A stretch of 64,000 bases of DNA. Source: Candidatus Falkowbacteria bacterium (lineage in GTDB: Bacteria; Patescibacteriota; Patescibacteriia; Patescibacteriales; WJLG01). The stretch spans positions 5,618-69,617 of the forward strand of contig CAVVFV010000010.1 of the NCBI GenBank assembly GCA_963747695.1, given 5' to 3'. The stretch's first letter is position 1. Each line of letters opens with the position of its first letter. Below are positions 1 through 55,030 of the stretch, piece after piece. Position numbers and translations under genes: made by a program. Below the pieces are notes generated by a model, which did not search any database, was not told where the DNA came from, and saw only the letters and a program-made list of their open reading frames with translations.

Positions 1-50
1 TTAGTCATAACATTTTTATTATTTTTTTATATATTAATAATTATAGCATA

Positions 51-560
51 AAAATCCTAAATTTAAAATCCTAAATCCTAAACAAATCCAAATGTCCAAA
101 ATTCAAAATTAAAAACCGTTGCGATTAAAGATTATTGCCGGTTATTTTTTTCTGACTTTGTAATAATCGCGCCAAATATTTTCATCAATTCCACTGATTC
201 GTTAATCAACCGTTGTTTCTCTGCTTTTAAACTTAAATTGCTTCCTTCCTCAATCAACTTAAGCCAATAACGGCTTTCCTTGGCTTCCTTGCGGCTTATT
301 TTTATCCTAAAAATAAAGTCTTTTTTGCTTAATGATTCATTGGCCTCGATGTAATTAGCTCCTACAGAGCCGGATGATCTGATTACCTGTTTTGCATCCT
401 CGATATTGGCAATGGAACTCGGAATCACTTTAATAAATTTTCTTACCCGGTCGGCAAATTCCAATGTCCGATTTTCCAGATCATAGTAATTCACCCTCGC
501 TGTTTTGAACATTAGAATTTTGAATTTGTTTAGGATTTAGGATTTCGTGCTTAGAATTTA
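51..560. repeat. class-I hairpin cassette: inverted-repeat arms enclosing four-helix-bundle ORF 132..512
   Basis: 66..87 'aaatcctaaatcctaaacaaat' is the exact reverse complement of 524..545. Simple-sequence flanks (aatcctaaa / tttaggatt) extend the arms. Confidence 0.85.
132..512 (-). CDS. four-helix-bundle protein (23S rRNA intervening-sequence protein / DGR-Avd-like family)
   Basis: 126-aa ATG ORF. Family-typical motifs 'SSGSVGANYIEA' and 'RKEAKESRYWL'. About two-thirds identical by eye to ORF 6556..6930. Enclosed by a perfect 22-nt inverted repeat (66..87 / 524..545). Confidence 0.85.
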   Translation of the reverse strand: MFKTARVNYYDLENRTLEFADRVRKFIKVIPSSIANIEDAKQVIRSSGSVGANYIEANESLSKKDFIFRIKISRKEAKESRYWLKLIEEGSNLSLKAEKQRLINESVELMKIFGAIITKSEKNNRQ

Positions 561-1286
561 TTTGACGATCATCTTCCCGACCGCGCCAAGTTGGCGGTGG
601 CCATCAAAATCGGAATAAAATGTATATTCGCCAAGCTGAGTCGGAGCATTGAAAGGAATCGCCAAAGTTTGCCGCGGTTCCAAGCCCATCGCCACGGCGG
701 CCAAGAGCGGGCTGTCGAATTTAAAAACTTCCACCGAACTGGCAGCGGTAACCGACAACACCACCGCTTGTCCGGCGCTGACCGTGAATTCCGCGGGAAC
801 AATCGAATCGGGATTTATCGTTAATTTTATGGCGCTCGCCGGCAGTTTGCTGGCATCGATCGGCGCCGACTGCAAAGGAGCGTTGGCATCACCGGCCCGC
901 GTGCCGTTGGCCGCCGTTTCCGATCCATCGCGCGTCAAAACTTCGCCGGTTTTTTCCGAGATCGGATTGCTTTGCGGCGCGACCACCACGGCTTGTTCCG
1001 GAGTCGTAGTACCGTCGCCGTTGTCCCGATTAACCGTAATTACTTTGGCAATATTTCCTGCCGCGGGAGTCGAGGCTAAATTTTTCGTTTCCTCAATCAA
1101 TTTTTGTGTGGCTTGTTTGCCCGCTTCAATGCTCGTGGCCGGGGCTTGGCCGGTCTGGGCCGCGGGCGGATTTTTCGTTATGGTCTTCGGCGCAGAAAAA
1201 TTTTTCCAAATAAACAAGCCGGCGATAAAAACAACCAAAACGCCGATGATGACAGACATGATGATGATGGATTTTTTTGTGAACAT
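558..1286 (-). CDS. membrane-anchored secreted protein, C-terminal cupredoxin-like beta-sandwich (tentative)
   Basis: 242-aa ATG ORF. N-terminal TM helix 'IIIMSVIIGVLVVFIAGLFIW', an Ala/Thr/Pro-rich linker, and a C-terminal tail 'EYTFYSDFDGHRQLGAVGKMIVK'. The fold call is by eye only. Confidence 0.6.
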   Translation of the reverse strand: MFTKKSIIIMSVIIGVLVVFIAGLFIWKNFSAPKTITKNPPAAQTGQAPATSIEAGKQATQKLIEETKNLASTPAAGNIAKVITVNRDNGDGTTTPEQAVVVAPQSNPISEKTGEVLTRDGSETAANGTRAGDANAPLQSAPIDASKLPASAIKLTINPDSIVPAEFTVSAGQAVVLSVTAASSVEVFKFDSPLLAAVAMGLEPRQTLAIPFNAPTQLGEYTFYSDFDGHRQLGAVGKMIVK

Positions 1287-1295
1287 GCGGATAAA

Positions 1296-1731
1296 ATTGT
1301 TATATTGTTATACTGCTATATTGTTAATTTATTATTCGTAAAATTTATTAGGTGATAAATTTCTTTCGGTAATTTCGCCAATTCACCAAATATGTACCTA
1401 TACTCATCTTCGTTCAACAACTTTCTCACTCGAGATTTTTCATTCCAATCCAATGATTCTTTCAGAGATCCGATTGAATAACGATAAAACTTAATTTTGT
1501 CTTTTTTACTGTATCGGCCGAAACCTTCGGCAATATTTGCGTAAATGGAATCGGCAGCGGTAACAAATTGCTCCCCCAAAGAACTTTTATTAAAATAATC
1601 CCATTTTACTATTTTGCTCCAAATATAATTGGATAAATTAAAACTTATTTTGTAAGCGTTCAAGTCGTTGAGCGACAAAAATTTCCCCTCCATAAAATTA
1701 TAACAATATAGCAATATGACAATATAACAAT
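1296..1731. repeat. class-II hairpin cassette: inverted-repeat arms enclosing four-helix-bundle ORF 1316..1693
   Basis: 1296..1326 'attgttatattgttatactgctatattgtta' against the reverse complement of 1701..1731 gives 29/31 matches. Confidence 0.85.
1316..1693 (-). CDS. four-helix-bundle protein, divergent member of the IVS/Avd-like family
   Basis: Motif 'ANIAEGFGRYSKKDKIKFYRYSIGSLKESLDW'. The track ORF starts at a TTG (1714) inside the inverted-repeat arm; the ATG at 1693 (MEGKFLS...) is preferred. Confidence 0.8.
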   Translation of the reverse strand: MEGKFLSLNDLNAYKISFNLSNYIWSKIVKWDYFNKSSLGEQFVTAADSIYANIAEGFGRYSKKDKIKFYRYSIGSLKESLDWNEKSRVRKLLNEDEYRYIFGELAKLPKEIYHLINFTNNKLTI

Positions 1732-4032
1732 CTATTTAAGATTAACCAGCGCCATCACCCAGCCTTTGCCCGTATCCGCTTCAAGGGCTTTGCCGATTGC
1801 CGTACCGACTTTGGGGTTGATCGCTTTCATCGCTTCGCCGGAAACTGCCGAAGTCGTCAGCAGATCGCCCGGTTGGATCTTTCCGCCGGTGGCGTTAACC
1901 AAAACTTTTACCACGCCGGTCAAAGCGACGGGCGCGACAAACTTTCCTTCGACTTGGCCGATGACCATGCCCGGCTTTTCAGAAATTACTCCGATCACCG
2001 TCTGATCATAATTTTTATCGCAGGCGCGAGCTGATTTATAGCCCTGGTCGTCCATCACCAAAACCGTACCGGCCGGATAATTTTTGTCAGTATAAAACTC
2101 TTCGGCCACGTCGCCCGAACCGGCCGTGATCTGACCGGCAACTAACAGGTCGCCGGACTTGGTTACTCTTAATACATTAGTCGTGGTTGAGCTCGCCACG
2201 TCAAAAATATCGCTGATACCGGCGGCACCGGCTACCGTTAATTTGGCTGTTGCCGCAGTTGTTCCAACGCCGACGTTACCGGATATATAAGCGTTGCCGG
2301 CGCCGTAATTTGCTCCGGCGGCATTATAACCGACCAACAAAGAAGCGGCAGTTGAAACCTGGAAAGGATGAGTGGCGTCGCCCACGTATCTTATGCCATA
2401 TCCTTCAATGAATTTAGTGATGGCAAAAGTGCCGCTTTCAAATCCCAGCCCGGCTCCGGCAAGACTAATACCGATTGGCCCGTTTACGGTGAGAGTTTCG
2501 GCCGGATTGGTGGATCCGATGCCGACGCTGCCGGAGCCATAAGCTCCGCCGCCATCTAAAATGATGTTATCGTTTTGTTTGATAACAAAATCATAATGAG
2601 AAGTTGCCCCGCTATAAATTGACAGGTCATTAGTGCCAAGAACGGCAGAAGCGATTAAAGCGTAATAGAACGAGCCCTCCTTAGCCAAGTCAAACTCCCC
2701 CCCGCTGGTTCCGCCAGCCCTAATCACCGGCTGCGCTCCGCCGCTCACATGTAATGTTGCCATCGGGTTGGTCGTCCCAATGCCGACGTTGCCGCCGCTT
2801 AATATTGTAACTCTGGTAGTATCGTTAGTTCCCAGTTGCAGCGGATATGCCCCCGATTGATTCATCACAAAGGCATATGGCAATCCGCCGTTTGTTGTAA
2901 ACGCTGTTCCAGCGCTATTTTCAATACCAAAATACGCACCGGGAGTATTTGAAAAACTAAGGAAAGCGGCATTGGTAGCAGTAGTAGAGTGCAAATGTAT
3001 CCGCGCCGTTGCCCCTTCAACCTGTAAAGGAAACAAAGGGTTGGTCGTCCCAATGCCGACGTTGCCGCCGTTCTGAACTATTAAACGGGTAGTTCCAATA
3101 CCGCTGGCAACTGACATAAAATTAAATCCATTGCCATCTTCCCCTAAAAGATAGCCGGTATTGTCGTAAGTCCTGTTCAGTAATATAGCAGGCCAATATT
3201 GTGCCGTTAATTTCAAATTATTAGAAAAACCCTGATTGGTAAAATTATCTGCACTGGATATTATTTCTAATGCGCCGCCGGGATTGGTCGTCCCGATGCC
3301 TACGCCGTTTTTGTTTAAATTAAGTATTGATGAATAAGTCGTTCCGCCATTGATAATATCATATTGCCAACCGATCGTTCCGTTAACTGGATTATTTCCA
3401 TGGAGCTGCAAATAATAATTATTGGGTAAATCAGTTTCGTCCCGCCAAATTTGTCCGGTAACATAGCCATCAACTTCCAATTTAGCGCCAGGATTGGTCG
3501 TCCCAATGCCGACGTTGCCGGTGTTCATATTCCAAATATTTCCCCCCAATGTTCCGCTCCAAAATTTGGAAGATGAAGCCGCCCAGTCGACGTAATATTT
3601 GGAAGCGGCTTCATTGTTATTGATCGGGATGGTCGCCAATCCCACGACCCGATTGCCATCGGCGTCAATGACGTTGACGTTCGGGGCGGACGGACTGCTT
3701 ACCAATAAACTGGCGGCGCCCAGCGAGGAAGAAGCAATGGCTACCTTACCGTTATAAACGAAAAAATTAGATACGATTGACGGCGAAGTGGTACCGAGCT
3801 TCAAAGTCCCGTACTTGGTCTGATCGATCGGTAAAGCAGTGGATCCGGTGAAAATCGGCGGCGTAACATTGCCGCCAGTCGGACTGGCGGTCGGATTGGA
3901 CCAGTCAGCTAAGCCATAAAGCGCGTAAATAAAAACCCCCAACACGACAAAGGCGCCGAGAGCAAAGCCTAAACTCGAATCTTTTAAAGAATTTTGTATT
4001 TTAGTAAAATTGTCTTTTTGGGAAAACTGCAT
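1732..4032 (-). CDS. secreted fibre-like repeat protein (six GIGTTNP-type repeats; phage fibre/appendage-like C-terminal domain, tentative)
   Basis: 766 aa with an N-terminal TM anchor. Six spaced copies of G-[IV]-G-[TS]-T-x-[PA]...L-x-V. The DNA unit 'ggttggtcgtcccaatgccgacgttgcc' recurs near 2766, 3039, 3281 and 3492. The C-terminal 'GDVAEEFYTD...VIGVISEKPGMVIG' resembles autoproteolytic intramolecular-chaperone domains of phage fibres (recollection, unverified). Confidence 0.7.
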   Translation of the reverse strand: MQFSQKDNFTKIQNSLKDSSLGFALGAFVVLGVFIYALYGLADWSNPTASPTGGNVTPPIFTGSTALPIDQTKYGTLKLGTTSPSIVSNFFVYNGKVAIASSSLGAASLLVSSPSAPNVNVIDADGNRVVGLATIPINNNEAASKYYVDWAASSSKFWSGTLGGNIWNMNTGNVGIGTTNPGAKLEVDGYVTGQIWRDETDLPNNYYLQLHGNNPVNGTIGWQYDIINGGTTYSSILNLNKNGVGIGTTNPGGALEIISSADNFTNQGFSNNLKLTAQYWPAILLNRTYDNTGYLLGEDGNGFNFMSVASGIGTTRLIVQNGGNVGIGTTNPLFPLQVEGATARIHLHSTTATNAAFLSFSNTPGAYFGIENSAGTAFTTNGGLPYAFVMNQSGAYPLQLGTNDTTRVTILSGGNVGIGTTNPMATLHVSGGAQPVIRAGGTSGGEFDLAKEGSFYYALIASAVLGTNDLSIYSGATSHYDFVIKQNDNIILDGGGAYGSGSVGIGSTNPAETLTVNGPIGISLAGAGLGFESGTFAITKFIEGYGIRYVGDATHPFQVSTAASLLVGYNAAGANYGAGNAYISGNVGVGTTAATAKLTVAGAAGISDIFDVASSTTTNVLRVTKSGDLLVAGQITAGSGDVAEEFYTDKNYPAGTVLVMDDQGYKSARACDKNYDQTVIGVISEKPGMVIGQVEGKFVAPVALTGVVKVLVNATGGKIQPGDLLTTSAVSGEAMKAINPKVGTAIGKALEADTGKGWVMALVNLK

Positions 4033-4080: not shown

Positions 4081-4189
4081 TTTTTTAATTTTGTAATTTT
4101 TAAATTTTTAAAATAAATCCTAATTTTTAATTTTTAAAAATTAAGCCTTAAAAATTCTTTCAAAAATTTAAAAATTAAAAATTAATTTG
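4081..4189. repeat. AT-rich inverted-repeat element, family 'aaaattaaaaatt', copy 1
   Basis: The core at 4115..4169 is ~95% identical to 13366..13421. The outer arms 4081..4109 / 4162..4186 are complementary. Confidence 0.75.
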
Positions 4190-4554: not shown

Positions 4555-4660
4555 TGTTATATTGTCATACTGTTATATTGCTATATTGCTGCGCAACGAA
4601 ATAAATATTTATTGTAATTTAAGACGTCACTTAACAATATAACAATATAGCAATATAACC
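4553..4660. repeat. 'empty' class-II hairpin between ybeY and dgkA
   Basis: Built from the same caatataacaa/ttgttatattg units as the arms at 1296..1731. A 17-bp perfect stem joins 4572..4588 and 4643..4659. The loop begins 'gcgcaacgaaataaata'. Confidence 0.75.
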
Positions 4661-5087: not shown

Positions 5088-5220
5088 AAATCTGAAATAC
5101 AAAATCCAAAAATAAATTCAAAATCCGAATAACAAAAATTCTAATCGTTTTGAATTTTGAATTTTTAACATTTGAATTTGTTTAGGATTTCGTGCTTAGA
5201 ATTTCGGATTTGATTAGAAT
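5088..5220. repeat. 'empty' class-I hairpin (no ORF in loop) upstream of ybeY
   Basis: 5174..5211 'gaatttgtttaggatttcgtgcttagaatttcggattt' matches the leader motif at 522..559 and 6940..6978. Nested pairings are 5136..5144/5196..5204 (9 bp) and 5119..5129/5203..5212. Confidence 0.7.
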
Positions 5221-6480: not shown

Positions 6481-6978
6481 TTAAATCCGAAGCTAGAAAT
6501 CCGAAATCCGAAACAAATCTAAAATCTCAAATCAGTAAAAACTAAAATTTTAATTTTATTCCTCTTGGGTTGAATTTCTTAAAATAGCTCCGAAAATTTT
6601 CATTAATTCCGTTGCCTCATTGGCTAAAAAATTTCTTTCCCGCGCCGCATTCTCGTAATTTCCGCAATCAATTAAAATTAGCCAGTATCTGCTTTCTTTG
6701 GCCTCCTTGCGACAAATCTTTATTCTTAAGATAAAATCTTTTTTACTTAAAAAATTATTAGCTTCGATATAATTTGCACCCACCGAACCGGACGATCTTG
6801 CCAATTGTTTCGCATCTTCAATATTTGATGTTGAAAACGGAATAACTTTTAGAAAATTTCTAACTTTGGCTGCGAAATTAAGTGTTCTCTCTTCCAAATC
6901 ATAATAATTAATTCTCACTGTTTTGGTCATTGGAATTTTAAATTTGTTTCAGATTTCGTGCTTCGGATTTCGGATTTA
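6481..6978. repeat. class-I hairpin cassette enclosing four-helix-bundle ORF 6556..6930
   Basis: 6497..6512 pairs perfectly (16 bp) with 6962..6977, and 6511..6518 pairs with 6942..6949. The right arm carries the conserved 'aatttgttt.ag.atttcgtgctt.g.attt' motif. Confidence 0.8.
6556..6930 (-). CDS. four-helix-bundle protein (IVS/Avd-like family)
   Basis: 124-aa ATG ORF. 'SSGSVGANYIEANNFLSKKDFILRIKICRKEAKESRYWL'. Bracketed by inverted repeats 6481..6528 / 6932..6978. Confidence 0.85.
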   Translation of the reverse strand: MTKTVRINYYDLEERTLNFAAKVRNFLKVIPFSTSNIEDAKQLARSSGSVGANYIEANNFLSKKDFILRIKICRKEAKESRYWLILIDCGNYENAARERNFLANEATELMKIFGAILRNSTQEE

Positions 6979-8008: not shown

Positions 8009-11000
8009 CTATTGGCTCTGGCAGGTTCCATTGGTACCGCAGGACGAACCGGCGGCTTTGCCATTACAGGCGTTTTTAGCGGCAGCCGGATCGGAACAGA
8101 CAATATTCTTACCGAAAAAATAAGATTCTTTCAGCAAGTCTTGGCAAGTTCCGCCCGCGCCGCAAGCCGCGCCGACCGGCAAACCGGTGCAGGTACCCGG
8201 AGCGTTAGTATCAGTACAATCCAAATTCGAACCAAGCGAAGTGACCGGATTGGTTACCGTGGGCAGATCGGCAGCGCTGCCGCCATTGTCGCGGCAATAA
8301 TACAATTCATAATTCATCGGATTGCAGACGGAATTCAGCGGATTCGTCGGGGACTTGACGCAGCCGCCGCCCAAAACCGCATCCAAAGTATCAAACCAGG
8401 GGCGCCAAGGAATTCCTTGCGACTGCAGATTATCCGGCCAGGTGGAAGAACACATAAAGACATAAACATCAGCCGTGCTTGAGGCGTTAGGATTTGGCAC
8501 GCTTTGATTGACATCCGTGAAAGTTCGAGTGTCGGTCAGATAAACTTTGGCTAAAAGCTGGGCTTGGGCATCGACAACTCCCGCTACCGCCCGAACCAAT
8601 TGCTCCGGAGCAACATAATCAAAAGGCTGAATAATGCCATTGTTGTTATTATTAACGAAATTGACCGCCAGGGTATTGCCGTTCTGCCAACTCCAAGTCC
8701 AGGAATATCCCTTTACCGGATGAAGGACCTGATCGTCGGCGGACAAGGCGGCGGCGGTGAAAGCTTTATCGTTGTCGGCAGCCGTATCAAAAGTCTTCGA
8801 GGTAGGATCGTTGTCGTTTTCATTCAAATCACTGTTGGAGTGATTGATCAGATAAGAATCGGGGGAAATAGAAACGTGGTCAATGCCGCAAATGCCGTCA
8901 TCTTCGCCGCTGGCTTGTTTGGTCTTGAACCACCAAAGGTAAGAATTAGTGAAAGCGACACCGTCAAATTGAGAGTAATTGGCCACCGGACTAGCGGAAC
9001 CAAAAACATTCAAGCCGATATCCCAGTAACTTAATACGGCGCCGGTAGTGGTGGACAGATCATGCACACCCCTGACCACGGCATAATAAACAGTGTCCGG
9101 TTCAAGGACGATCGAAGGTTGGAAATTAAGGATCGTCTTATTATCCCCTTCCTCGGCGCTGGAAACATTTCCCGGCACGGAGCAATAAAGATGAGAATTA
9201 TCCGGCACATTCGCGAGGCTCTGCTTACCAAACAGCCAGGTTAAATGTTCGCGCGCATCAGCCAGCAATTTGTCGTAAGTTTTCTCAAAAATATTTTTAT
9301 TCTGCAGGCTCACGTTCGCCGTTCCGATCTGGGTCGTGCCCGAGGCGCACTTGGCGTCGCCCGCCACTTCCTCGATTAAAATAAAATCATCATTAAAACT
9401 TCCGGTGTCCATCTTTTGATTGAAAGACACGCCCAAGTCGGCGTTGGTGCAAACATTGGTTACGCCGTTATCAGGCGTGATGGTGGAAACGCTGGGACGG
9501 GCGCGGCAGCAGGAATCCATGCCGCAGCCTTGATAATCCGGTGTTGCTCCCGGCGGAACGCAGCTGTCATTGCCTTGGCAGCCGCAGCAAAGTCCGCGGC
9601 TATCGCCCGAGCAAGGAGTCTGATTCTTTCGGCAGGACAAAGCGGAATTCAAACCCAAATCATGACAAGCGTCGTAAGTGGAGGCATCGGTTTTATCCGC
9701 TCCGATTTTAGTCGGATCGCAGCAGCAGAAGCCGCAACCGGCCGCGGCCGGTTTATCCGGAGCTTTCGCTCCGTTGTCGAGGAGACAACTGAAAGGACCG
9801 GAGCAGATGCCTAAATTGCAAGTATCAGGCTGGTTCTGATTTTGGCAGCTGACGCCCAAGAGAGAATTGGAAGATCCGCATTTATCATTGCACTCGGCCG
9901 AGGAAGGGAAGAATGGGCTGGCCGGCAAACTGGTCGGAGTCGAACAGCCGGCGGCATTATCGCCGCACTGAAAATAACCGCAAAAAGTACTGCCTTGATA
10001 ATTCACGATCGGTAATATATCGCCCAATGTATTGTCATAAGATAAATTCTTACAATTGCCGCTTTGCCGATCAACGCAGCAAGCGCCGGAATGATCGCGG
10101 CAGGAAGCGGCATCGGACATCGCCGCGCAATCGCGGCAAACTCCGTCGGGAAAATTAGTAGTGTCAGAGGTATCGCAGAATTGCCCGGTATGCGCGGCGC
10201 AACTGCAGGCCGCATCGGAACCGGCAACGTCTACCTGGCCGGCATTCGGACCGGAAGAGAAAAGTTTTTTGCAGCCGCCGCAAGAACCGTAAGTCGTCGG
10301 ATTGGCCTTGCCGACATCGCTGCCGCAAGTCCCCTCGCATTTCAAGGGAGCACAACAATCCTGGTTGGCATTGGCTTTCTGACAGCAGCAAGGACAAGTA
10401 TTCCCTGGAGCTTTTTCGCATTGTCCGCTGACGCAAGTTGAACCGCCGGCGCAGACCTCACTCGCCGAACCGCAAACGCCTTGATGCGAAGCGGGCTGGC
10501 TCGGATCGGCCAAACAGTCTTGCTTGGCATTGAGGCAGATCGAGCACGGGGTCGCGGTGTCGACACAAACCGGGATGCCCTGAACATCAATGCCGCGAAG
10601 ATTGAATTTTGCCGAACAGCGGGGACCGGCCTTATACATATAATAGTAGAAGAGATTATTGCTCACATCTTTATAAGCGCCGCAATAAGTATCATGAGAG
10701 TTGCCCAAATCATCGACGGTGGTGCTGGCTAAATCGCAAACCTCGCTATGGCCGCCGGTATTTTCCACACATCTGTTGAGTTGAGAACTATAAACGCAGG
10801 TGCCGGAGTCACAACCGGGCTGATCCTGGCAATGCGAATCATCGCAATTAACTGTCGGCGAAAAAGGCTGCAAAACAGGACTGCCGGTTAAAGGCGAACA
10901 CTCGCCCGGAACATTGGGACAAGTCAGTCCCAAAGTGCAGGCGCCGGTCGCGTTACTTATTTCCTCACAGCTTCCCGGAGCAGTCGGGGAAGCAATCGGC

Positions 11001-13333
11001 GTAACATTGGTGCTGAATTTGAATTCGTAAACCGAGGTCGAAGCGGTCGCCGAACAATCAGTGGTTAGGTTAGCCACGCAAGTGCCGGCTTTGGCGGTAT
11101 CAGCCCCGCAGCAATGTTCGTCCGCGCCGCAAGCCGTATCCTGTTTCGGCGCGTCAAGACAACTGCCGACGGAAAAATTCAAGCCATTGCCTTCCAAAGC
11201 GTTGGCGGGCGAGGAAGCATTTTTGACTACGGTCACCGGACCGGTGGCGGCCGACGACGGTACAGCCGTGGTGATCGTATTCGGCGTGTTATCGCCATCC
11301 CAGGTAAGCTTGGCAGCGCCGCTCACTGGTTGATTATGAAAAAATCTGACCAGACTGTTGGATTCATCAAAGGTGGAAAAATATTCTCCCCAGAGATTAA
11401 CTTGCGTACCGACAACTCCGATTACCGGGCTGATCTTGCAGAGCGACGGCTTCAACGGCAAGCTCGTGTCAACTTTGAAACTTTGCGGCGTCGCGCCCGC
11501 CGAGGTCAGCGTCTGGCCGTTTTCCAATTTGACCGTTAAAATATCATTAAAATTCGAAAACTTTGGATCAGTACTGACTGGCACCTTAACAATAATCTGC
11601 TGATCGCTCCAAGTACTATCTTTGCAGACAGGTGGGAAATCGAGATCGGCTAGCGTACCATTAGTGACGGTGCCGAAATAGACCTGGCTCTTACCCTGGA
11701 TGTTGCCGAAGCCGTTGCCGCGGATGGTAACGTATTGTCCGATATTGCCGGTAACCGGTTCAAAGGATGAAATAAAAGCGCCCAAGGCCGGCGTAGAACT
11801 GTTGGTAAAAGCGAGATAGTTGCTATTCTGCTGGCTGTCGGAATTATAGACAAAGGTGGTGGTCTGGCCCGGATTGAAATTAGGAACGATCGCCGAGCCG
11901 GCATTGCTGCCGAAAGCCGAATTGACCCCCATAATCGAGGCGCCGTAACTGCCGAAATCGGCCGCGGCCGCCGAGCTGAAATTGACGCCATTATAAAAAA
12001 CGCTGCTGCCCAGTTTGCCTTCGGGCGTTACCTGGCAAAGGCCGGGCCGGGTTATCGAATTCACGACAAAATCTTTTATTTTCGGTCCGCGCGAATCATT
12101 GGTTAAATCGGTTTTGTCATCAATGGTGGTTACCCTGATCGGTCCGTCTTTGGCGCCTACCGGAACGACGATGATGATCTGATTGGCAGCCCAGGACGAA
12201 ACGCAATTGCGATTGGCGGTTTTAGGAAGATCGCCGGCCACGAAACCGCCGGCGCCGTTGGAAAATTCCACTGTGCCGGTAGCATCGCCGAAATATTGTC
12301 CGCCGAGAGAAATAATATTACCCACGGCGCCGTTGGGCGCGGCAGTATCACAAGTCGAACCCGGACAATCAGTATCTTTAGTACAAATCTTATTATGGTC
12401 GCTATCGCAAAAACCGCCGACCGGACTCACCCAATCGATGACCGGATATTCCTCGCAAGTGCAAGCTTTAGCGCCGGTGGTTTCGCAGGTCAAATTATTG
12501 GAGCAAAGATTACTGTCCGGCCGGCAAACTCCGGCCGTGGTAGTGGCATTACAGGGAGCGCCGACTCCGACCGAAGGAGCGCATTGGCAAGTGCCAAAAT
12601 CGCAAGCCGAATTATTATAGCAATTATCAATCGCTTGGCAGCCGGGCGCCGAATTCACATCACAGGGTCCGCCGTCGTTCGCTTGCGGCTGGCAAGTACA
12701 AGGGTCGGCCGCGTTAGGATCGCAAAAATGGGTGCTATCGCAAGCGCCGTTATCTTCACATACTCCGGGCGTAGTCGCGCCATTGCATGAAGTTCCGGTG
12801 CCGCCGGCCGTCGGGCACAAGCAAGTAGACATATCGCAAGAACCGACATCGCAGACGCCGCCGCAGGCGCCCAACGCCGCGGTGCCGCCGCACGGCTGGC
12901 CGGCTCCGCCCGTTCCGGGTAAGATCGAACCGCCGCCGCCGGTAGTAGTGCCGGTGGTGCTGACGCCGGTCGCATTTAAAATTGAGTTAAGGATAAAGGT
13001 GGCGATGGCGAAAGCCGAAAGGATGATCAGTAAACCGATCACTGCCGAAACCAGAACTTTTTTGGCCGTGGTGATCTTTTCTTCGTCGCCGGAGGCCGTC
13101 ATCCATAAAAATCCGCCGTAGATTATCAAGCCGATGGCGATCACGCCTAAAAATCCCAAAGCGATCCGGATAATATTGCCGACGATCAGCCGCGGATCGG
13201 TCGCCACCAATCCGGTGGCATTGCCATAGCTTAAGCCCAAATCCGCCCCCTGGGCCAACGCCAAACCGGCAAAGGCGAAAAGGCCAGCTAAAAGAGTTAG
13301 GGCTATAATTATTTTTTTTGATGGTTCAGACAT
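8009..13333 (-). CDS. giant cysteine-rich surface protein with N-terminal TrbC/VirB2-like 'pilin' module and IPT/TIG- and SbsA-like Ig domains
   Basis: 1,774 aa from the ATG at 13333 (the track start at 13339 is GTG). N-terminus 'YGNATGL..TDPRLI...YGGFLWMTASGDEEKITTAKKVL..IGLLIILSAFAIATFILN'. Two Cys-dense blocks at about 12440..12900 and 9500..11160. Ig-like segments lie between them. Confidence 0.85.
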   Translation of the reverse strand: MSEPSKKIIIALTLLAGLFAFAGLALAQGADLGLSYGNATGLVATDPRLIVGNIIRIALGFLGVIAIGLIIYGGFLWMTASGDEEKITTAKKVLVSAVIGLLIILSAFAIATFILNSILNATGVSTTGTTTGGGGSILPGTGGAGQPCGGTAALGACGGVCDVGSCDMSTCLCPTAGGTGTSCNGATTPGVCEDNGACDSTHFCDPNAADPCTCQPQANDGGPCDVNSAPGCQAIDNCYNNSACDFGTCQCAPSVGVGAPCNATTTAGVCRPDSNLCSNNLTCETTGAKACTCEEYPVIDWVSPVGGFCDSDHNKICTKDTDCPGSTCDTAAPNGAVGNIISLGGQYFGDATGTVEFSNGAGGFVAGDLPKTANRNCVSSWAANQIIIVVPVGAKDGPIRVTTIDDKTDLTNDSRGPKIKDFVVNSITRPGLCQVTPEGKLGSSVFYNGVNFSSAAAADFGSYGASIMGVNSAFGSNAGSAIVPNFNPGQTTTFVYNSDSQQNSNYLAFTNSSTPALGAFISSFEPVTGNIGQYVTIRGNGFGNIQGKSQVYFGTVTNGTLADLDFPPVCKDSTWSDQQIIVKVPVSTDPKFSNFNDILTVKLENGQTLTSAGATPQSFKVDTSLPLKPSLCKISPVIGVVGTQVNLWGEYFSTFDESNSLVRFFHNQPVSGAAKLTWDGDNTPNTITTAVPSSAATGPVTVVKNASSPANALEGNGLNFSVGSCLDAPKQDTACGADEHCCGADTAKAGTCVANLTTDCSATASTSVYEFKFSTNVTPIASPTAPGSCEEISNATGACTLGLTCPNVPGECSPLTGSPVLQPFSPTVNCDDSHCQDQPGCDSGTCVYSSQLNRCVENTGGHSEVCDLASTTVDDLGNSHDTYCGAYKDVSNNLFYYYMYKAGPRCSAKFNLRGIDVQGIPVCVDTATPCSICLNAKQDCLADPSQPASHQGVCGSASEVCAGGSTCVSGQCEKAPGNTCPCCCQKANANQDCCAPLKCEGTCGSDVGKANPTTYGSCGGCKKLFSSGPNAGQVDVAGSDAACSCAAHTGQFCDTSDTTNFPDGVCRDCAAMSDAASCRDHSGACCVDRQSGNCKNLSYDNTLGDILPIVNYQGSTFCGYFQCGDNAAGCSTPTSLPASPFFPSSAECNDKCGSSNSLLGVSCQNQNQPDTCNLGICSGPFSCLLDNGAKAPDKPAAAGCGFCCCDPTKIGADKTDASTYDACHDLGLNSALSCRKNQTPCSGDSRGLCCGCQGNDSCVPPGATPDYQGCGMDSCCRARPSVSTITPDNGVTNVCTNADLGVSFNQKMDTGSFNDDFILIEEVAGDAKCASGTTQIGTANVSLQNKNIFEKTYDKLLADAREHLTWLFGKQSLANVPDNSHLYCSVPGNVSSAEEGDNKTILNFQPSIVLEPDTVYYAVVRGVHDLSTTTGAVLSYWDIGLNVFGSASPVANYSQFDGVAFTNSYLWWFKTKQASGEDDGICGIDHVSISPDSYLINHSNSDLNENDNDPTSKTFDTAADNDKAFTAAALSADDQVLHPVKGYSWTWSWQNGNTLAVNFVNNNNNGIIQPFDYVAPEQLVRAVAGVVDAQAQLLAKVYLTDTRTFTDVNQSVPNPNASSTADVYVFMCSSTWPDNLQSQGIPWRPWFDTLDAVLGGGCVKSPTNPLNSVCNPMNYELYYCRDNGGSAADLPTVTNPVTSLGSNLDCTDTNAPGTCTGLPVGAACGAGGTCQDLLKESYFFGKNIVCSDPAAAKNACNGKAAGSSCGTNGTCQSQ

Positions 13334-13342
13334 TGACACGCT

Positions 13343-13440
13343 TTATAATTTTTTAATTTTTAAAGAAATCCTAATTTTTAATTTTTTTAAAAATTAAGCC
13401 TTAAAAATTCTTTAAAAATTACAAAATTACAAAATTAAAT
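13343..13440. repeat. AT-rich inverted-repeat element, copy 2
   Basis: Shares its core with copy 1. Shares both termini with copy 3 ('ttataattttttaatttttaaa' and 'tttaaaaattacaaaatt'). Confidence 0.75.
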
Positions 13441-13446
13441 CTTCTC

Positions 13447-16400
13447 CTAGGGGCAATCTCCGTTGGCGTCCAATTTACTCGTCGCCACGCCGTAACAGCA
13501 GGAAGGCTGCGTTGTCGAAACATTCTTGCAGGTCGACTGATCGCCGGACGGTTTGAAACAATTTTCATGGATATCGCGCACCGCCGAACCGGCCTGGGCG
13601 CGGTAATCGGAAGATTCGCCGAAATCGCTATGCTTGATGATCGCATTGGTCTGGATCGGCGCGTTACCGCCAAAAAGCGTTTCGGTTTGGATCCAATAGC
13701 CGATCGGATTATCCGCCACATTCCAGAGGTTGATATTCTTATGAGTAACTGGCCCTTGGCCGGTATCAATCACAGTCGAGCCGGTAACCAAAGTGGAAGC
13801 CATCATCAATTTATTGAAATTGATTTTGATATCCTGGCTCAACTTCGGCACTTCGCCCGCGGCCGGTGAAACCGACGTCACGATCGGCGCCGAAATATCC
13901 ATCTGATCATTGACATAAAAACTCCAGGAAAAATTATCGCCGTTGGCGCAATAATAAGTAGGGATATTCACCTGGCCACAAGTGGCGGAACTGACCGCGT
14001 CTTGTCGGCAAGCGACATAACCTGGTTCATTTTCGTTCTCGTCAAAGATAAAAAGATTTCCCGAGCTATCTTTGACGGCGCCAGGCAAACCGATGTCTTT
14101 CATTTCCTTATTCATCAAATTCAGGCATCCCGTCGCACCTAGGGCGGTACATCCACCGACAGTATAATATTTGTAATTTCCGGCGTCGGGGCCGGTAATT
14201 TCTCCCAATACTTTGTCCTGTTTGATTCGGGCGGCGATCACGGCCTGGATGATCGTTGAAAAATTATCCTGGCAAGACTGATTATTGGAATAGATCGGCG
14301 GATTATCGCTGTAAGTCGCGGCCGGACCGTCGGCAAAACTATTCCGGTCGCCGTCCAAAGAATTGAAAGCCGCGTCAGTCACGCCATCCGGCCCGCCAGC
14401 TGGCGCGGCCTGAATATTGGCCGCGGGATAGCGGCGGACTTCGGGAGCGGTGGCAGCATAATTGCCGCCCAGATTCTCACTGCAAATATTATTGATGCAT
14501 TGATCGTAGGCTTTGCCATTGACATTCTTAGCGGCGCAATCGGCATTAGTATCGCAATGCGCCAAACTCGCCGCTTTGATAACGACTTCAAGGTGGCTGT
14601 TGGGCGGCAGACAATAGATCGGTTCGCCGCAACCATTGACGCCGCAAGGGACATTACTGGTGAACTCCACGGTCTGATAAAGATTGGCGATGGCGAAAGT
14701 TCCTTGCAAATATTCGTTGCTGCCGGCGCAAATTTTATTGGAACAAGTGAAAGATTTACAGTCAGCGGCCTGCGCGCAACCGCCGCCAGCGGACTTGGCG
14801 TTCGGATCGGCATTGACCACTTGAATTGCTGAAGCGTCAGTGGCGGCCCCGGCCACATTGGACGGCAAGATCGGCTCATTGAAATTTATCTGGATGACCG
14901 TGTTCATCGGCTGGTCAGGCTGGTTGCCGGCCGTGCTGACGTTGGGGTCGGCCGTGCTTGAACCGTCATCGCCGCCTTTCATATTAGTAATCGAGAGCGC
15001 GCCGGAATTATCCGGAGAATTAAAAGATAGGTTGATATTATTACCGGCCGCGCCGGCAGCGGCCGCCGAAACCGTTACTTGAGCGCCGGAAACCGCAACC
15101 GTGATGTCGGTCTGTTTGCCTAAAGCGGCGGCAATATTATTCGCCGTATCCGCGGCTGTCGCGCCCACGGCGATTTCATTATCCTGAGTCGATTTTTTTA
15201 CAAAAGTATAAACGAGCGATCCTGCTTGCAAAGAATCGGCCTGTCGGGCGGCCGTAATCGTAACTGTCCAGGCATCGCCGGCCTTGACATCAGCGTGAGC
15301 AGTCAGAGAAAAAGGATATTTACCGGTAAAGAAAACTGTCCGGCCGCTAAAGATGGCTGAGCCTAAATTTGATCCGTCAATCAATGTCGCCGTAGCAGTT
15401 AATCCGTCCGGCAAAACAACTACTTTGATAACTGCGCTTAAATCGGCATTTTGATTCACCGTGGTATCAGCGTCAGGAGTAGGCGAAGCTGAAACTGTTT
15501 TGGCCGCCGAACTGGTAGCTGCCACAAAATATTGCGGCGGTTTGCGGCAGATGCCGGCATTGACCGTGATTGAGCCGACCGCGCGCGCGGCGAAAACCAG
15601 GTTAGCATTATCCCGGCCGTTGTCCGGCGGCGGAAAGACTCCGCTTGAAACAACCTGCGGCGGAGTAAGATCGATCTTATTGGAAACTTGGAATTGCCAA
15701 TTCAAACTGCCGGCGCAACCGGAACCGCTAAAAGCCGAGCTATGGTCGCTCGTCCGCGTAATCCCGCCGAGCAGATTGACCGTGTACCAGACATTGTCCG
15801 TTTCCGAACCCAAATATTGCGCGGGAATAAAAGTAAATGTTTTATTATTATCGGAAGATATTACTTTGGTATCAATTAAAGGATTGCCGCTGTCGCTGGA
15901 TTTATAAATTTGGACGTTGGTCGTATTGATCGTCGAACCGGCGGCGCAATTTCCACTGGCATCGACGGAAGCGCAAACGGTTTTTGCATCGACCGATTCC
16001 TTGAAAGTGATGAAGATCGCCGTATTCCGCGGCACTGCCATCTGATTGGGCACCGGATAGACATTCTGGACGCTGCATTCGCCGATCGCTCCGGCGCCGT
16101 TGATCCCTCCCCCGGGCGGTCCGGAGGGATTATTGCCGGCTCCTCCGCCGGCTCCGGTCGCGCCCAACAATTGGTTCAAAATAAAAGTCGCGATGGCAAA
16201 AGCGGAAAGGATGATCAGCAAACCGATAATGGCGCTGACCAAAGTCCGCTTGGCCCGGTCGATCTGCTCCTCATTGCCGGCCGCCGTCATCCACAAGAAC
16301 CCGCCGTAAACTATCAAGCCGAGGGCGATGACTCCCAAAAAACCCAAAAAGATCTGGATGATCCGGCCGATGATCAGCCGCGGATCGGTCGCGCCAAGGC

Positions 16401-16518
16401 CGGTGGCATTGCCGTATTCCATGCCCAGGTTGATCTGCGCGGAAGCCAAATGAAAAACAAAAAACACTCCAACCAAAAGAGTTAGCGCGCTAATTATTTT
16501 TTTTGCGGACTTAGGCAT
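13447..16518 (-). CDS. large surface protein, paralog of 8009..13333 (same pilin-like N-terminal module)
   Basis: 1,023 aa from the ATG at 16518 ('MPKSAKKIISALTLL', which aligns with 'MSEPSKKIIIALTLL' of the neighbour). The track start at 16614 runs through the intergenic repeat. The first ~125 aa are about 80% identical by eye to the neighbour. SbsA-like Ig segments and a Cys-containing C-terminus follow. Confidence 0.85.
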   Translation of the reverse strand: MPKSAKKIISALTLLVGVFFVFHLASAQINLGMEYGNATGLGATDPRLIIGRIIQIFLGFLGVIALGLIVYGGFLWMTAAGNEEQIDRAKRTLVSAIIGLLIILSAFAIATFILNQLLGATGAGGGAGNNPSGPPGGGINGAGAIGECSVQNVYPVPNQMAVPRNTAIFITFKESVDAKTVCASVDASGNCAAGSTINTTNVQIYKSSDSGNPLIDTKVISSDNNKTFTFIPAQYLGSETDNVWYTVNLLGGITRTSDHSSAFSGSGCAGSLNWQFQVSNKIDLTPPQVVSSGVFPPPDNGRDNANLVFAARAVGSITVNAGICRKPPQYFVAATSSAAKTVSASPTPDADTTVNQNADLSAVIKVVVLPDGLTATATLIDGSNLGSAIFSGRTVFFTGKYPFSLTAHADVKAGDAWTVTITAARQADSLQAGSLVYTFVKKSTQDNEIAVGATAADTANNIAAALGKQTDITVAVSGAQVTVSAAAAGAAGNNINLSFNSPDNSGALSITNMKGGDDGSSTADPNVSTAGNQPDQPMNTVIQINFNEPILPSNVAGAATDASAIQVVNADPNAKSAGGGCAQAADCKSFTCSNKICAGSNEYLQGTFAIANLYQTVEFTSNVPCGVNGCGEPIYCLPPNSHLEVVIKAASLAHCDTNADCAAKNVNGKAYDQCINNICSENLGGNYAATAPEVRRYPAANIQAAPAGGPDGVTDAAFNSLDGDRNSFADGPAATYSDNPPIYSNNQSCQDNFSTIIQAVIAARIKQDKVLGEITGPDAGNYKYYTVGGCTALGATGCLNLMNKEMKDIGLPGAVKDSSGNLFIFDENENEPGYVACRQDAVSSATCGQVNIPTYYCANGDNFSWSFYVNDQMDISAPIVTSVSPAAGEVPKLSQDIKINFNKLMMASTLVTGSTVIDTGQGPVTHKNINLWNVADNPIGYWIQTETLFGGNAPIQTNAIIKHSDFGESSDYRAQAGSAVRDIHENCFKPSGDQSTCKNVSTTQPSCCYGVATSKLDANGDCP

Positions 16519-16520
16519 TA

Positions 16521-16713
16521 TCGTATTTCGTATTTCGTATTTCGTATTTTGACTGCCCAGCGATTTGCTCTTGAATTTTGGGCGTAAAAATACAAAAAAC
16601 GCCAGACGAATCATTGACTAATCCCCACTGTTGTTATTAAATTAGATTATACCATAAAATGCCAAGAGAATAAAATATACGAAATACCAAATACGAAATA
16701 CGATATACGAATT
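16521..16713. repeat. 'cgtatttcg/cgaaatacg' inverted simple repeats flanking the divergent promoter region
   Basis: Left arm 16521..16550 ((tcgtattt)n). Right arm 16672..16713 (its imperfect complement), abutting the rel ATG. Confidence 0.7.
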
Positions 16714-18496: not shown

Positions 18497-18599
18497 ATTC
18501 GTATCTCGTATTCGGTATTTCGTATTTCGTATATATTTTCAGCAACATTCTGTCCAAAAACATACACGAAATACGAAATACGATCTACGAAATACGATT
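18497..18599. repeat. 'cgtatttcg' family hairpin between hisS and rpsU
   Basis: Arms 18497..18534 and 18562..18599 are ~85% complementary, with a 27-nt loop. Confidence 0.75.
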
Positions 18600-19980: not shown

Positions 19981-20118
19981 AATTTAAATTTTATAATTTT
20001 TTAATTTTTAAATAGTTTTTAAACTCTAATTTTTTAATTTTTTAAAGGCCAATTTAAATGATAATTTTAAAAATTAAAAATTTGGATTTATTTAAAAATT
20101 ACAAAATTTAAAAATTTC
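19981..20118. repeat. AT-rich inverted-repeat element, copy 3
   Basis: 19991..20012 is identical to 13344..13365, and 20091..20108 is identical to 13411..13428. Confidence 0.75.
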
Positions 20119-21090: not shown

Positions 21091-21192
21091 GTTATACTGC
21101 CAAATTGTTATATTGTTACGCAACGAAATAAATAACAATGGTGTTTATTAAAATCGTTGCGTAACAATATAACAATTTAACAATATGACAAT
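21091..21192. repeat. 'empty' class-II hairpin, 25-bp perfect stem
   Basis: 21102..21126 'aaattgttatattgttacgcaacga' is the exact reverse complement of 21154..21178. The 27-nt loop begins 'aataaata', as in 4553..4660. Confidence 0.85.
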
Positions 21193-54221: not shown

Positions 54222-54242
54222 AAATATTTTAATTAATAATTA

Positions 54243-54330
54243 AAAATGTAAATCTCAAAATGCAAAATTATAGAATTCGCCTGAGGCAAAAAAATACTAA
54301 TTAATTTTTCATTTTGACATTTTCATTTTA
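54243..54330. repeat. 'aaaatgNaaat' hairpin immediately downstream of tRNA-Pro
   Basis: Arms 54243..54269 / 54303..54330 are imperfectly complementary. Same family as 54796..54847. Confidence 0.7.
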
Positions 54331-54340
54331 CACTACTTTG

Positions 54341-54411
54341 TCGGGCTGCTGGGAATTGAACCCAGTCTACATGCTCCCAAAGCACGCGTACTACCGGTAT
54401 ACGACAGCCCG
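54341..54411 (-). tRNA. tRNA-Pro (anticodon TGG)
   Basis: Cloverleaf built by hand. Acceptor CGGGCTG/CAGCCCG, anticodon stem CGTGC/GCATG, loop TTTGGGA, T-arm CTGGG-TTCAATT-CCCAG. No encoded CCA. Confidence 0.8.
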
Positions 54412-54550
54412 TCTTCGTCACCCTGCGGGCGACTTCGACGGGTAGAGCCCGCGTAACCCGCACTAATCTATTAACCATTATTTATTTAGAAAAATAATTT
54501 CCGTTATGGCCGTTTTCGTCACAAGGATTTAATAAGGTCCCATCGGAAAT

Positions 54551-54708
54551 GTGATTTTGGAAGGCATCGTTTCCGTAGCGAAACCGAAAAAATCAGAGAT
54601 AGAATTTTTTGGATTTTTCGAGACGTACTCGCGTACGTTGAGAAAATCCGAAAAATTATAGCCTGATTTTTACGGTTGCAGCAGGAAAAAGATGCCTTCC
54701 AAAATCAC
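54551..54708. repeat. 158-nt long imperfect hairpin 5 nt downstream of tRNA-Phe
   Basis: 18-bp perfect basal stem 54551..54568 / 54691..54708. Apical palindrome acgtac-tcgc-gtacgt centred at ~54630. Confidence 0.8.
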
Positions 54709-54713
54709 CCCTG

Positions 54714-54785
54714 TGCCGAGGGTGAGAATCGGACTCACAACACAGCGATTTTCAGTCGCTTGCTCTACCACTGAGCTACCTCGGC
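54714..54785 (-). tRNA. tRNA-Phe (anticodon GAA)
   Basis: Acceptor GCCGAGG/CCTCGGC, D-arm GCTC-AGTGGTA-GAGC, anticodon loop CTGAAAA, T-arm GTGAG-TCCGATT-CTCAC. No encoded CCA. Confidence 0.85.
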
Positions 54786-54795
54786 GAAAATACTG

Positions 54796-54847
54796 TAAAA
54801 TGCAAATCTCAAAATGAAAAATTTTTCATTTTGACTTTTTCATTTTA
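54796..54847. repeat. 52-nt palindrome immediately downstream of tRNA-fMet
   Basis: 54796..54821 against the reverse complement of 54822..54847, with few mismatches. The 13-bp core 'tcaaaatgaaaaa/tttttcattttga' is perfect. Confidence 0.8.
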
Positions 54848-54858
54848 AACTACTGTTG

Positions 54859-54930
54859 TTGCGGGGGCCGGATTTGAACCGGCGACCTCCAGGTTATGGG
54901 CCTGGCGAGCTGCCACTGCTCTACCCCGCG
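54859..54930 (-). tRNA. initiator tRNA-fMet (anticodon CAT)
   Basis: C1/A72 mismatch, A11:T24, anticodon loop CCCATAA, T-arm GCCGG-TTCAAAT-CCGGC. Very similar to E. coli tRNA-fMet. No encoded CCA. Confidence 0.85.
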
Positions 54931-54941
54931 ATGTTCAGATC

Positions 54942-55010
54942 GAAAGATAAGAGAGAATAGATAAGAGATATTTAAATCCCCGTTCATTATCTCTTCTCTC
55001 TTATCTTTAA
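54942..55010. repeat. 'aagataagaga' hairpin between tRNA-Ile and tRNA-fMet
   Basis: Left arm 54942..54970 and right arm ~54988..55008 are complementary. Confidence 0.7.
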
Positions 55011-55030
55011 TCTGCTCTCTGTTTAAGGTG

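Follow-up and report, generated by a model that had tools for sequence, protein, structure and literature searches.

Intervening sequences (IVSs) of ribosomal RNA (rRNA) that contain an open reading frame (ORF) are the closest known system to the element described here. In Coxiella, the 23S IVS has a 28-bp terminal stem, cut by RNase III in mid-stem, and three tandem heptamers (GACAGAT x3) lie directly upstream of the ATG of its S23p ORF (PMC4990558). RNase III excision without religation has been shown for the Coxiella, Salmonella and Leptospira IVSs (PMC4990558). Three solved structures of the protein family, 2GSC, 2RLD and Avd of diversity-generating retroelements (DGRs), are homopentamers (PMC4990558; 10.1101/2023.10.23.563531). 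The DGR ribonucleoprotein contains an RNA stem-loop of 11 bp that touches all five Avd protomers. Flipped-out RNA bases occupy the crevices between protomers, and from one protomer to the next the same residues make contact with different bases (10.1101/2023.10.23.563531). Here we examined a gene of this family, c1, in 64,000 nt of a Candidatus Falkowbacteria bacterium contig (GCA_963747695.1, CAVVFV010000010.1, positions 5,618 to 69,617; this whole stretch is called the window). The c1 ORF is flanked by inverted arrays of a short repeat, and among its relatives one residue of the encoded protein changes together with one base of the repeat.

Three PF05635 ORFs (c1, c2 and c3), all bracketed by inverted repeats, lie within the first 7 kb of the window. 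The c1 arms are tandem heptamers rather than generic AT-rich sequence; the unit is AAnnnC(G/T), and we refer to its positions 6-7 (CG or CT) as the flavour of an array. The features of c1 are as follows.

503..564, minus strand: 5´ arm, AAATAAA-TTCTAAG-CACGAAA-TCCTAAA-TCCTAAA-CAAATTC..., from the upstream stop codon to the ATG, holding the perfect 22-nt segment 524-545
132..512, minus strand: ORF of 126 aa plus stop, encoding a four-helix-bundle protein (PF05635/TIGR02436), with the co-varying residue T118 at codon 159-161
47..108, minus strand: 3´ arm, an inverted heptamer array of CT flavour, holding the perfect 22-nt segment 66-87
40..67, minus strand: at the outer edge of the 3´ arm, a consensus match only to a sigma-70-like promoter (TTTAAA-16-TATAAT with an upstream TG)

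Positions 66-87 (AAATCCTAAATCCTAAACAAAT) are the exact reverse complement of 524-545. Among inverted repeats of window 1-700 whose arms are separated by 100 nt or more, no perfect match is longer than these 22 bp, a length well beyond chance for this composition: over 60 dinucleotide-type shuffles, the longest match averaged 9.6 bp and never exceeded 13 bp. A longer complementarity joins 47-108 and 503-564 (62 nt, 77%). The 5´ arm begins straight after the stop codon of the upstream gene (558-560), and the ATG of c1 (510-512) lies inside this arm. Folding of the sense (minus-strand) RNA for 40-575 gave a single long terminal stem around the whole ORF at -132.9 kcal/mol (z = -4.5), and none of 100 shuffles folded equally well. 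The promoter match points toward the gene downstream of c1; the cassette may supply that gene's promoter or overlap with it.

The c1 protein scored above the cut-offs of both family profiles: PF05635 with E 8.5e-14 and 52.1 bits (cut-off 33.8; c2, 73.3 bits) and TIGR02436 with E 3.4e-20 and 72.3 bits (cut-off 24; c2, 72.9 bits). PF05635 was the sole domain match of the cassette protein, with no transposase domain among the profile matches, and the c1, c2 and c3 proteins matched 0 families of the PADLOC defence-system models. An AlphaFold monomer model of the c1 protein (predicted local distance difference test score 91.1) has helices at 13-29, 34-59, 63-86 and 93-125, arranged as a four-helix up-down bundle. 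Its top matches in the PDB were 2RLD (E 1.6e-5, TM 0.69-0.80) and 2GSC, followed by Avd (4DWL/8UB7), and phmmer aligned the c1 protein to 2RLD with E 2e-14. The proposal that the cassette protein is a HEPN-like RNase found no support in the literature and was dropped. Searches with Rfam across the 64-kb window detected no rRNA and only four transfer RNAs (tRNAs), at 54.3-55.1 kb. A sequence-only reading of the window had already pointed out the exact inverted repeat, a stem-loop enclosing the entire ORF, membership of the IVS/Avd family, the lack of rRNA and ordinary protein-gene neighbours on the strand of the ORF; all of this was borne out, the strand being minus. The rRNA-IVS architecture that it saw in the locus likewise matches the Coxiella 23S IVS, in both the terminal stem and the heptamers directly upstream of the S23p ATG (PMC4990558).

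One scan of species-representative genomes returned at least 549 relatives, the best 80 of which are 57-72% identical in amino acid sequence. Cassettes of the c1 type occur in at least 10 bacterial phyla, the relatives coming from Planctomycetota, Desulfobacterota, Gammaproteobacteria, many Patescibacteria, Bacteroidota/Ignavibacteria/Chlorobi/Balneolaceae, Verrucomicrobiota, Omnitrophota, Nitrospirota and Bdellovibrionota. No rRNA was detected at any of the 20 related loci with unclear neighbours. The ORF was co-directional with both neighbours in 53 loci and antisense to both in one. The upstream stop codon typically lies 39-60 nt ahead of the ATG, the next gene starts 65-90 nt past the cassette stop, and the cassette, which starts immediately behind the upstream stop codon, has no evident promoter of its own. 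The two host genes are often two parts of one function, such as leuC and leuD, an ABC ATPase and its permease, PrgI and a TraC-like protein, paired cytochromes, or rnc and era. The last pair belongs to locus L170 (positions 1-1566; ENA ERZ24794679 NODE_28324), where a c1-family cassette with His at the position described below and CG arrays of 5 and 9 motifs sits between rnc, encoding RNase III, and era. Its host operon is thus that of the processing enzyme proposed below; the 64-kb window itself contains no RNase III gene signature. Published cases of PF05635 genes in cas loci, one of them located between cmr3 and cmr2 (PMC3936711), fit the habit of the cassette of sitting within operons.

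The anatomy of the cassette is conserved across these loci. The element measures ~480-520 bp and encodes a PF05635 protein of 121-126 aa without a Shine-Dalgarno sequence. In most loci the 5´ arm consists of ~4 heptamers AAnnnC(G/T) and ends ...C(G/T)AAACAAATTCAA-ATG (for example AAATTCG-AAGCACG-AAATCCG-AAATTCG, then AAACAAATTCAA and ATG), while the reverse complement of such an array forms the 3´ arm, 20-45 nt past the stop codon. The preferred order of heptamers differs between the arms when both are aligned at AAACAA: counted outward from there, the third unit of the 5´ arm most often has GCA, whereas the second unit of the 3´ arm most often has TAT or TTT. In CT-flavour arms (e.g. L006, L075, L078), some heptamers read AAACCCT, which is the plant-type telomere repeat (CCCTAAA)n; the likeness is presumably a coincidence, though one that could mislead repeat or contamination screens.

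The flavour of the two arms agrees within a locus (CG/CG in 32 loci, CT/CT in 17 and discordant in 2; Fisher 2e-11) and switched at least eight times on the protein tree. These switches are accompanied by changes at one residue near the C-terminal end of helix 4, X in the motif ...IFGxI(L/I/V)-X-KSE, which is Thr118 in c1.

CG repeats (positions 6-7), 32 loci: X is R in 26, K, Q or H in 5 and A in 1
CT repeats (positions 6-7), 19 loci: X is T in 12, E in 6 and V in 1, and never R, K, Q or H
AC repeats (positions 6-7), 2 loci: X is N

R, K, Q or H therefore accompanies the CG arrays in 31 of 32 loci, and T, E or V the CT arrays in 19 of 19. Since the Arg codons at X include CGA, CGC, CGT, CGG, AGA and AGG, the link between residue and flavour exists at the amino-acid level and does not reflect a DNA motif. 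Across 11 phylogenetically independent CG/CT contrasts, taken from a tree built on the N-terminal 125 alignment columns only, R or Q stood on the CG side in 10 and T, E or V on the CT side in all 11. We then picked 10 further loci by residue X alone, predicting CT arrays for T and E, CG arrays for H and Q, and mixed arrays for N; the outcome was clear in 8, partial in 2 (one arm mixed) and contrary in none. Both kinds of matched pair are present in the window, Thr with CT in c1 and Arg with CG in c3. The parallel change of residue X and the repeat base suggests that the protein reads its own arms, and the concerted G/T switch in both arms, tracking the protein residue, favors recognition of the repeats by the protein, in line with the self-regulating unit that the sequence-only reading had offered as one option, over selection for a helix.

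Comparison with a related metagenomic genome (L002/L003) indicates that the cassette moves as a unit. This genome carries a c1-type cassette whose protein is 84% identical to that of c1 and which, arms included, aligned to window 64-559 at 82.6%. In L002 it is located between homologues of window genes 1732-4032 and 558-1286, one gene upstream of the c1 site, whereas at the c1 site itself the homologous flanking genes are separated by a spacer of only 30 nt and the site is empty. The c1, L002, L003 and c3 cassettes align over their full length, arms included. Between the c1 and L002 ORFs, the nonsynonymous rate (Ka) is 0.089 and the synonymous rate (Ks) 0.876, a ratio of ~0.10, and the arms differ by ~1 nt per 32, which places both protein and arms under purifying selection. 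A further site, leuC|leuD, holds a cassette in at least nine planctomycete genomes of two classes (loci L006, L041, L047, L059, L061, L075, L078, L079, L164 and L172, in Pirellulales and Phycisphaerae). Both arm flavours occur there, each with the matching residue, pointing to replacement of one lineage by another in situ or to repeated homing. That this might be a mobile IVS-like cassette had been one suggestion of the sequence-only reading, and it is supported by the empty site together with the c1-type cassette elsewhere in the related genome, and by c2, c3 and the ORF-less derivatives in the window. Window 47-564 is one copy of a discrete and widespread cassette that resides within operons. 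On balance, we lean towards reading it as a horizontally mobile element of the IVS type whose pentameric protein binds its own repeat arms.

Arrangements at several other loci (L007, L021, L032 and L068:774-910) suggest tandem or nested cassettes and hairpins. At L007 (2940-3430), the upstream arm is repeated in direct orientation in the downstream flank; at L021 and L032, arrays of the 3´-arm type precede the ORF, and several ORF-less hairpins adjoin.

The other copies and related hairpins of the window are listed here.

1296..1731, minus strand: c2 cassette, PF05635 ORF 1316-1693 from ATG (MEGKF...), or 1316-1714 from TTG
1296-1335 and 1692-1731, minus strand: c2 arms, inverted arrays of an 8-nt unit, (ATTGTTAT)n
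6483..6977, minus strand: c3 cassette, PF05635 ORF 6556-6930, 124 aa, 67% identical to c1
6483-6515 and 6947-6977, minus strand: c3 arms, CG flavour (AAATCCGAAATCCGAAAC)
5095..5211, minus strand: ORF-less hairpin with c1/c3-type arms (mixed CG/CT) between two minus-strand genes, ...AAACAAAUUCAAAUGUU... being kept at the inner end of the 5´ arm
4556..4659, minus strand: ORF-less hairpin flanked by two minus-strand genes, its arms of c2 type (ATTGTTAT units), z -6.1
16519..16711, unstranded: ORF-less hairpin, (TTTCGTA)n, the reverse complement of the heptamer AAATACG and so of the CG-flavour family of c3
18506..18597, unstranded: ORF-less hairpin of the (AAATACG)n type, z -11.1
21102..21178, unstranded: ORF-less hairpin with c2-type arms (AAATTGTTATATTGTTA...), 25 bp perfect
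4082..4184, unstranded: AT-rich palindromic hairpin, (AATTTTT)n, in an intergenic gap; same type at 13342-13433 and 19986-20117

The c3 arms read CG/CG where those of c1 read CT/AG, and the c3 protein has Arg at the position of Thr118 of c1. The site of c2 is the same intergenic site that holds the c1-type cassette in L002. Besides c1-c3, at least eight ORF-less hairpins were found in the window, and most of the gaps between co-directional minus-strand genes from 4 to 24 kb hold an ORF-less hairpin with cassette-type arms; mononucleotide-shuffled window sequence contained 0 arrays. ORF-less hairpins with cassette arms were also seen at 9 of 77 loci of other phyla. The AT-only hairpins of the (AATTTTT)n kind make up a fourth intergenic hairpin type, whose kinship to the PF05635 cassettes is not established.

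The c2 protein has relatives in metagenomes at 59-77% identity, and these define a second repeat system. An array of an 8-nt unit, ATTGTTAN, lies directly upstream of the ATG in 45 of 48 c2-type loci and an inverted array at the 3´ end in 35 of 48, compared with 1 of 130 control windows. The 3´ array overlaps the last codons of the c2 ORF. In loci of the c2 family (L084-L163, e.g. L098, L089, L115), the ORF runs into the 3´ array and acquires a repeat-encoded C-terminal tail (...KLTIQFNNITI*), which is longer or shorter depending on how many units the array has. A TGG variant of the c2 unit goes together with L/I in place of F in the C-terminal ...LI(K/N)-F-TN motif (Fisher 2e-6, from only ~3 lineages).

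Elsewhere in the window, the minus-strand operon of tRNA-Ile/Met/Phe/Pro (54230-55130) has hairpins of another heptamer, (AAAATGN)n, as punctuation, one in the gap between tRNA-Met and tRNA-Phe (~54787-54847) and one after tRNA-Pro (~54240-54339). Jointly the two form a 37-nt inverted repeat (54303-54339 / 54787-54823), and the 300 nt that separate tRNA-Phe from tRNA-Pro contain another, distinct stem of 22 bp (54551-54572 / 54687-54708). Three very large ORFs on the minus strand, 24741-44432 (6563 aa), 8009-13339 (1776 aa) and 13447-16614 (1055 aa), are of a size typical of surface proteins of the candidate phyla radiation (CPR).

We propose the following sequence of events for the cassette. 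Read-through from the upstream gene would transcribe it as part of the polycistronic RNA of the host, where pairing of the two arrays would create a long stem that surrounds the ORF and sequesters its start codon. This stem would be imperfect at regular intervals, with 3-nt mismatches between blocks of 4 bp, although in c1 it is unusually perfect. The cassette protein, presumably a pentamer like its solved relatives, would bind the arrays, with the residue near the C-terminal end of helix 4 reading the G/T position of each heptamer, so that each cassette would be a matched pair of protein and repeat. By analogy with Avd, a stem of 4-bp blocks and three unpaired bases is a target that such a pentamer could read repeatedly. 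Through this binding, the protein may control how its own RNA is translated or processed, and perhaps also how the element and the ORF-less hairpin derivatives spread. RNase III probably cuts the stem, if the rRNA IVSs are a guide, which would correspond to the mRNA-processing punctuation suggested by the sequence-only reading; the cut would free the cassette RNA and part the two flanking cistrons from each other, so that the host could tolerate the insertion. A broader generalization, which we put forward tentatively as possible rather than probable, is that the PF05635 'IVS proteins' recognize periodic repeats in nucleic acids in a sequence-specific manner. Each cassette would then constitute a self-contained, orthogonal protein/repeat pair governed by a simple rule at one position of helix 4: G would be read by Arg, Lys, Gln or His and T by Thr, Glu or Val, while Asn would accompany AC arrays (A at position 6, C at position 7) or mixed CG/CT arrays. 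The rRNA IVSs, described since 1990-1993, would be the rRNA-resident minority of pan-bacterial, operon-dwelling, mobile ribonucleoprotein cassettes and their ORF-less hairpin derivatives.

Several observations weigh against these proposals, most of them bearing on the stem. RNAduplex energies of whole upstream against downstream flanks did not discriminate (median -69.8 for own and -64 for cross-locus flanks) because long AT-rich flanks always form extended imperfect duplexes. Arm complementarity was scored by local alignment instead and, as the conservation of the arm sequence itself makes pooled cross-locus pairing a misleading null, own and cross-locus arms were compared within flavour classes. 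With the arms anchored at AAACAA, the share of loci that are complementary is 0.7-0.9 at the AA and C(G/T) positions but only 0.2-0.35, a near-random frequency, at the nnn positions; the nnn triplet is the same in both arms in 4-13 of 42 loci. The stem of a typical locus consists of 4-bp blocks and 3x3 mismatches, a poor canonical substrate for RNase III. Own arms were no more complementary than arms of different loci, either in the CG class (17.6 versus 17.5, permutation p 0.42) or in the CT class (15.9 versus 15.9, p 0.47). With most nnn positions unpaired and own arms equal to cross-locus arms, there is no locus-specific compensatory evolution, and selection for helix pairing is not detectable. 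The conserved feature is the inverted pair of motif arrays, and the perfect 22-bp helix of the window copy is atypical; the perfect stem that the sequence-only reading had described is not what homologous loci conserve. As a refuting outcome it had named arms that prove to be chance AT-rich matches lacking compensatory conservation in homologous loci. This outcome does not apply, the arms being conserved in sequence in at least 10 phyla. The sole compensatory change is the concerted G/T flavour switch.

Nor was there an excess of G-U over A-C mismatches that would mark sense RNA (94 versus 74, p = 0.14), so that recognition at the RNA level is not separable from recognition at the DNA level. 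The modal number of motifs per arm is 4, which does not match five protomers, and we draw no conclusion on stoichiometry. The residue-flavour link is possibly inflated by shared ancestry, with trees that rest on ~120 residues, and the 53:1 sense bias is partly survivorship because the loci were found through intact ORFs. In Coxiella, the homologous IVS ORF is seemingly untranslated and decaying (PMC4990558). As for movement, no target-site duplication was recognisable at the c1 junctions when compared with the empty site of L002, no recombinase or vector was found for the cassette and the viral contigs of IMG/VR contained no relative. Plasmids yielded only family members at 32-42% identity, mostly cyanobacterial, and phages only distant family members in two uncultured phages.

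The main rival explanation is a DNA-level element, in which the arrays are terminal inverted repeats bound as duplex DNA by the cassette protein acting as an end-recognition or synapsis factor. A host enzyme, or one supplied in trans, would cut and join, the ORF-less hairpins would be non-autonomous copies similar to miniature inverted-repeat transposable elements (MITEs) or REPINs, and the RNA stem would be a by-product. Conservation of the inverted motifs without locus-specific pairing and the lack of a G-U bias speak for this explanation, and the sharing of one flavour by both arms, matching the protein residue, is expected if one protein binds both ends. Polymorphism in presence and absence, different cassettes at one site and ORF-less copies scattered over intergenic gaps are equally in its favor. 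However, no nuclease or recombinase fold or motif is present in the protein, a plain four-helix bundle like S23p and Avd, and the junction between filled and empty site shows no visible target-site duplication. Neither the strong sense orientation within operons (53:1) nor the constant position of the 5´ array next to the ATG is required for the binding of DNA ends, and the sole characterised relative binds RNA. We consider a DNA-level element unlikely.

Still more doubtful in our view is domesticated operon punctuation, according to which the hairpins, with or without an ORF, are host-beneficial signals for RNA processing, stability or termination that set the expression of neighbouring cistrons and are not selfish. 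The protein would be a regulator of the hairpins, for example by shielding stems from RNase III or by promoting cleavage. Consistent with this, almost every co-directional gap from 4 to 24 kb has a hairpin, the tRNA operon has heptamer hairpins too, cassettes persist at leuC|leuD across two planctomycete classes, and both ORF and arms are under purifying selection. The distribution is patchy, however, with 57-72% identity across phyla, presence and absence vary among close relatives, cassette lineages have been swapped at one site, both flavours occur at leuC|leuD, and the host gene pairs are functionally unrelated to each other. Patchiness, polymorphism, flavour swaps and varied hosts are better fitted by a mobile element than by a conserved regulatory device, and the two readings can coexist.

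That c1 is part of a DGR, as an Avd accessory gene with its RNA element, is suggested by the fold (4DWL and 8UB7 are among the structure matches) and by PF05635 being the commonest DGR-linked family (PMC10053308). It is nevertheless very improbable, as the window has no reverse-transcriptase-like (YxDD) ORF and no template/variable repeat pair, the neighbours are ordinary here and in ~90 related loci, and the identity to Avd is 12-15%. The idea of chance, genome-specific, low-complexity AT-rich repeats beside an ordinary paralogous gene, which could appeal to the low complexity of the tandem heptamers and to a genome rich in intergenic hairpins of several repeat types, has already been refuted and merits next to no credence, given 22 bp observed versus at most 13 bp in shuffles, heptamer arrays around an orthologous ORF in at least 10 phyla with order and ATG distance conserved, and the rarity of arrays in control (1/130, c2 type) and mononucleotide-shuffled (0) sequence.

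Returning to the repeat-reading cassette, its consequences reach beyond this locus. The ORF of rRNA IVSs has had no assigned function since the early 1990s, and repeat-reading, if true, would supply one. Genes annotated 'four helix bundle protein' are unexplained paralogues in thousands of genomes, at times read as cas- or DGR-associated, and spurious 'associations' of PF05635 with cas and other operons are explained as insertions. The cassettes also draw attention to one origin of the long hairpins that lie between genes in CPR and other genomes. Mentions of PF05635 genes in the literature concern rRNA insertions, DGRs and cas loci; a full-text search, in which older subscription literature was thinly covered and an earlier remark is possible, returned no description of a non-rRNA cassette, of the repeat arrays or of a link between residue and repeat. 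New here are a defined PF05635 cassette with conserved repeat arms, its sense position within operons across at least 10 phyla, and the covariation of residue and base. The question of what IVS proteins do can now be reduced to one residue and two oligonucleotides. Should the residue-base code be true, the protein would be a small, modular, repeat-reading scaffold, and if repeat-reading itself is true, the Avd of DGRs was perhaps recruited from such a protein, a plausible ancestor.

Among known systems, MITEs and other small elements derived from insertion sequences resemble the cassette in their small size, inverted termini, intergenic location and presence/absence polymorphism, whereas the cassette has neither transposase-derived sequence nor a visible target-site duplication, has a conserved non-transposase ORF and occurs in sense only inside operons. 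The REPIN/RAYT system (REPtron) is similar in having a gene between inverted copies of a short repeat, dispersed intergenic hairpins without an ORF, and matched pairs of repeat and protein. RAYT is, however, a homologue of HUH Y1 transposases, while the cassette protein, a helical bundle, does not look like an enzyme; REPINs do not consist of heptamers in tandem, and RAYT genes are single-copy and vertically inherited where the cassette is multi-copy and found across phyla. The trp RNA-binding attenuation protein (TRAP) is a ring-shaped RNA-binding attenuator that reads spaced (G/U)AG repeats. The cassette shares with it an oligomeric protein and an array of short motifs with variable spacers beside a start codon; the folds are unrelated, the array of the cassette is duplicated in inverted orientation, and array binding, known for TRAP, is a proposal for the cassette.

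The DGR protein Avd has the same four-helix-bundle fold, its solved relatives are pentamers, and the RNA stem-loop that it binds is encoded a short way downstream of its own gene region. Avd is the best mechanistic precedent for a pentamer that reads a periodically imperfect hairpin. The cassette differs in lacking a reverse transcriptase and a template/variable repeat pair, in its identity of 12-15% to Avd, and in arrays that are periodic and present on both sides of the gene. In comparison with rRNA IVSs with an ORF (Leptospira, Coxiella burnetii, Xanthomonas, Brucella, and CPR insertions with 23S_rRNA_IVP ORFs), the host of the cassette is an mRNA operon and not a 23S/16S rRNA helix, the defining feature of an IVS. 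Its arms extend no pre-existing rRNA helix, its heptamer is a different one, AAnnnC(G/T), and its ORF is under strong purifying selection while that of Coxiella is decaying; RNase III excision, known for the IVSs, is proposed for the cassette by analogy. Common to both are the PF05635/S23p family, an ORF in sense within the host transcript, terminal inverted repeats around it, no strong Shine-Dalgarno sequence and, by the published description, tandem heptamers directly ahead of the start codon (PMC4990558). Both also have hairpin versions without an ORF and a sporadic distribution that suggests horizontal transfer (PMC4990558, PMC11270868).

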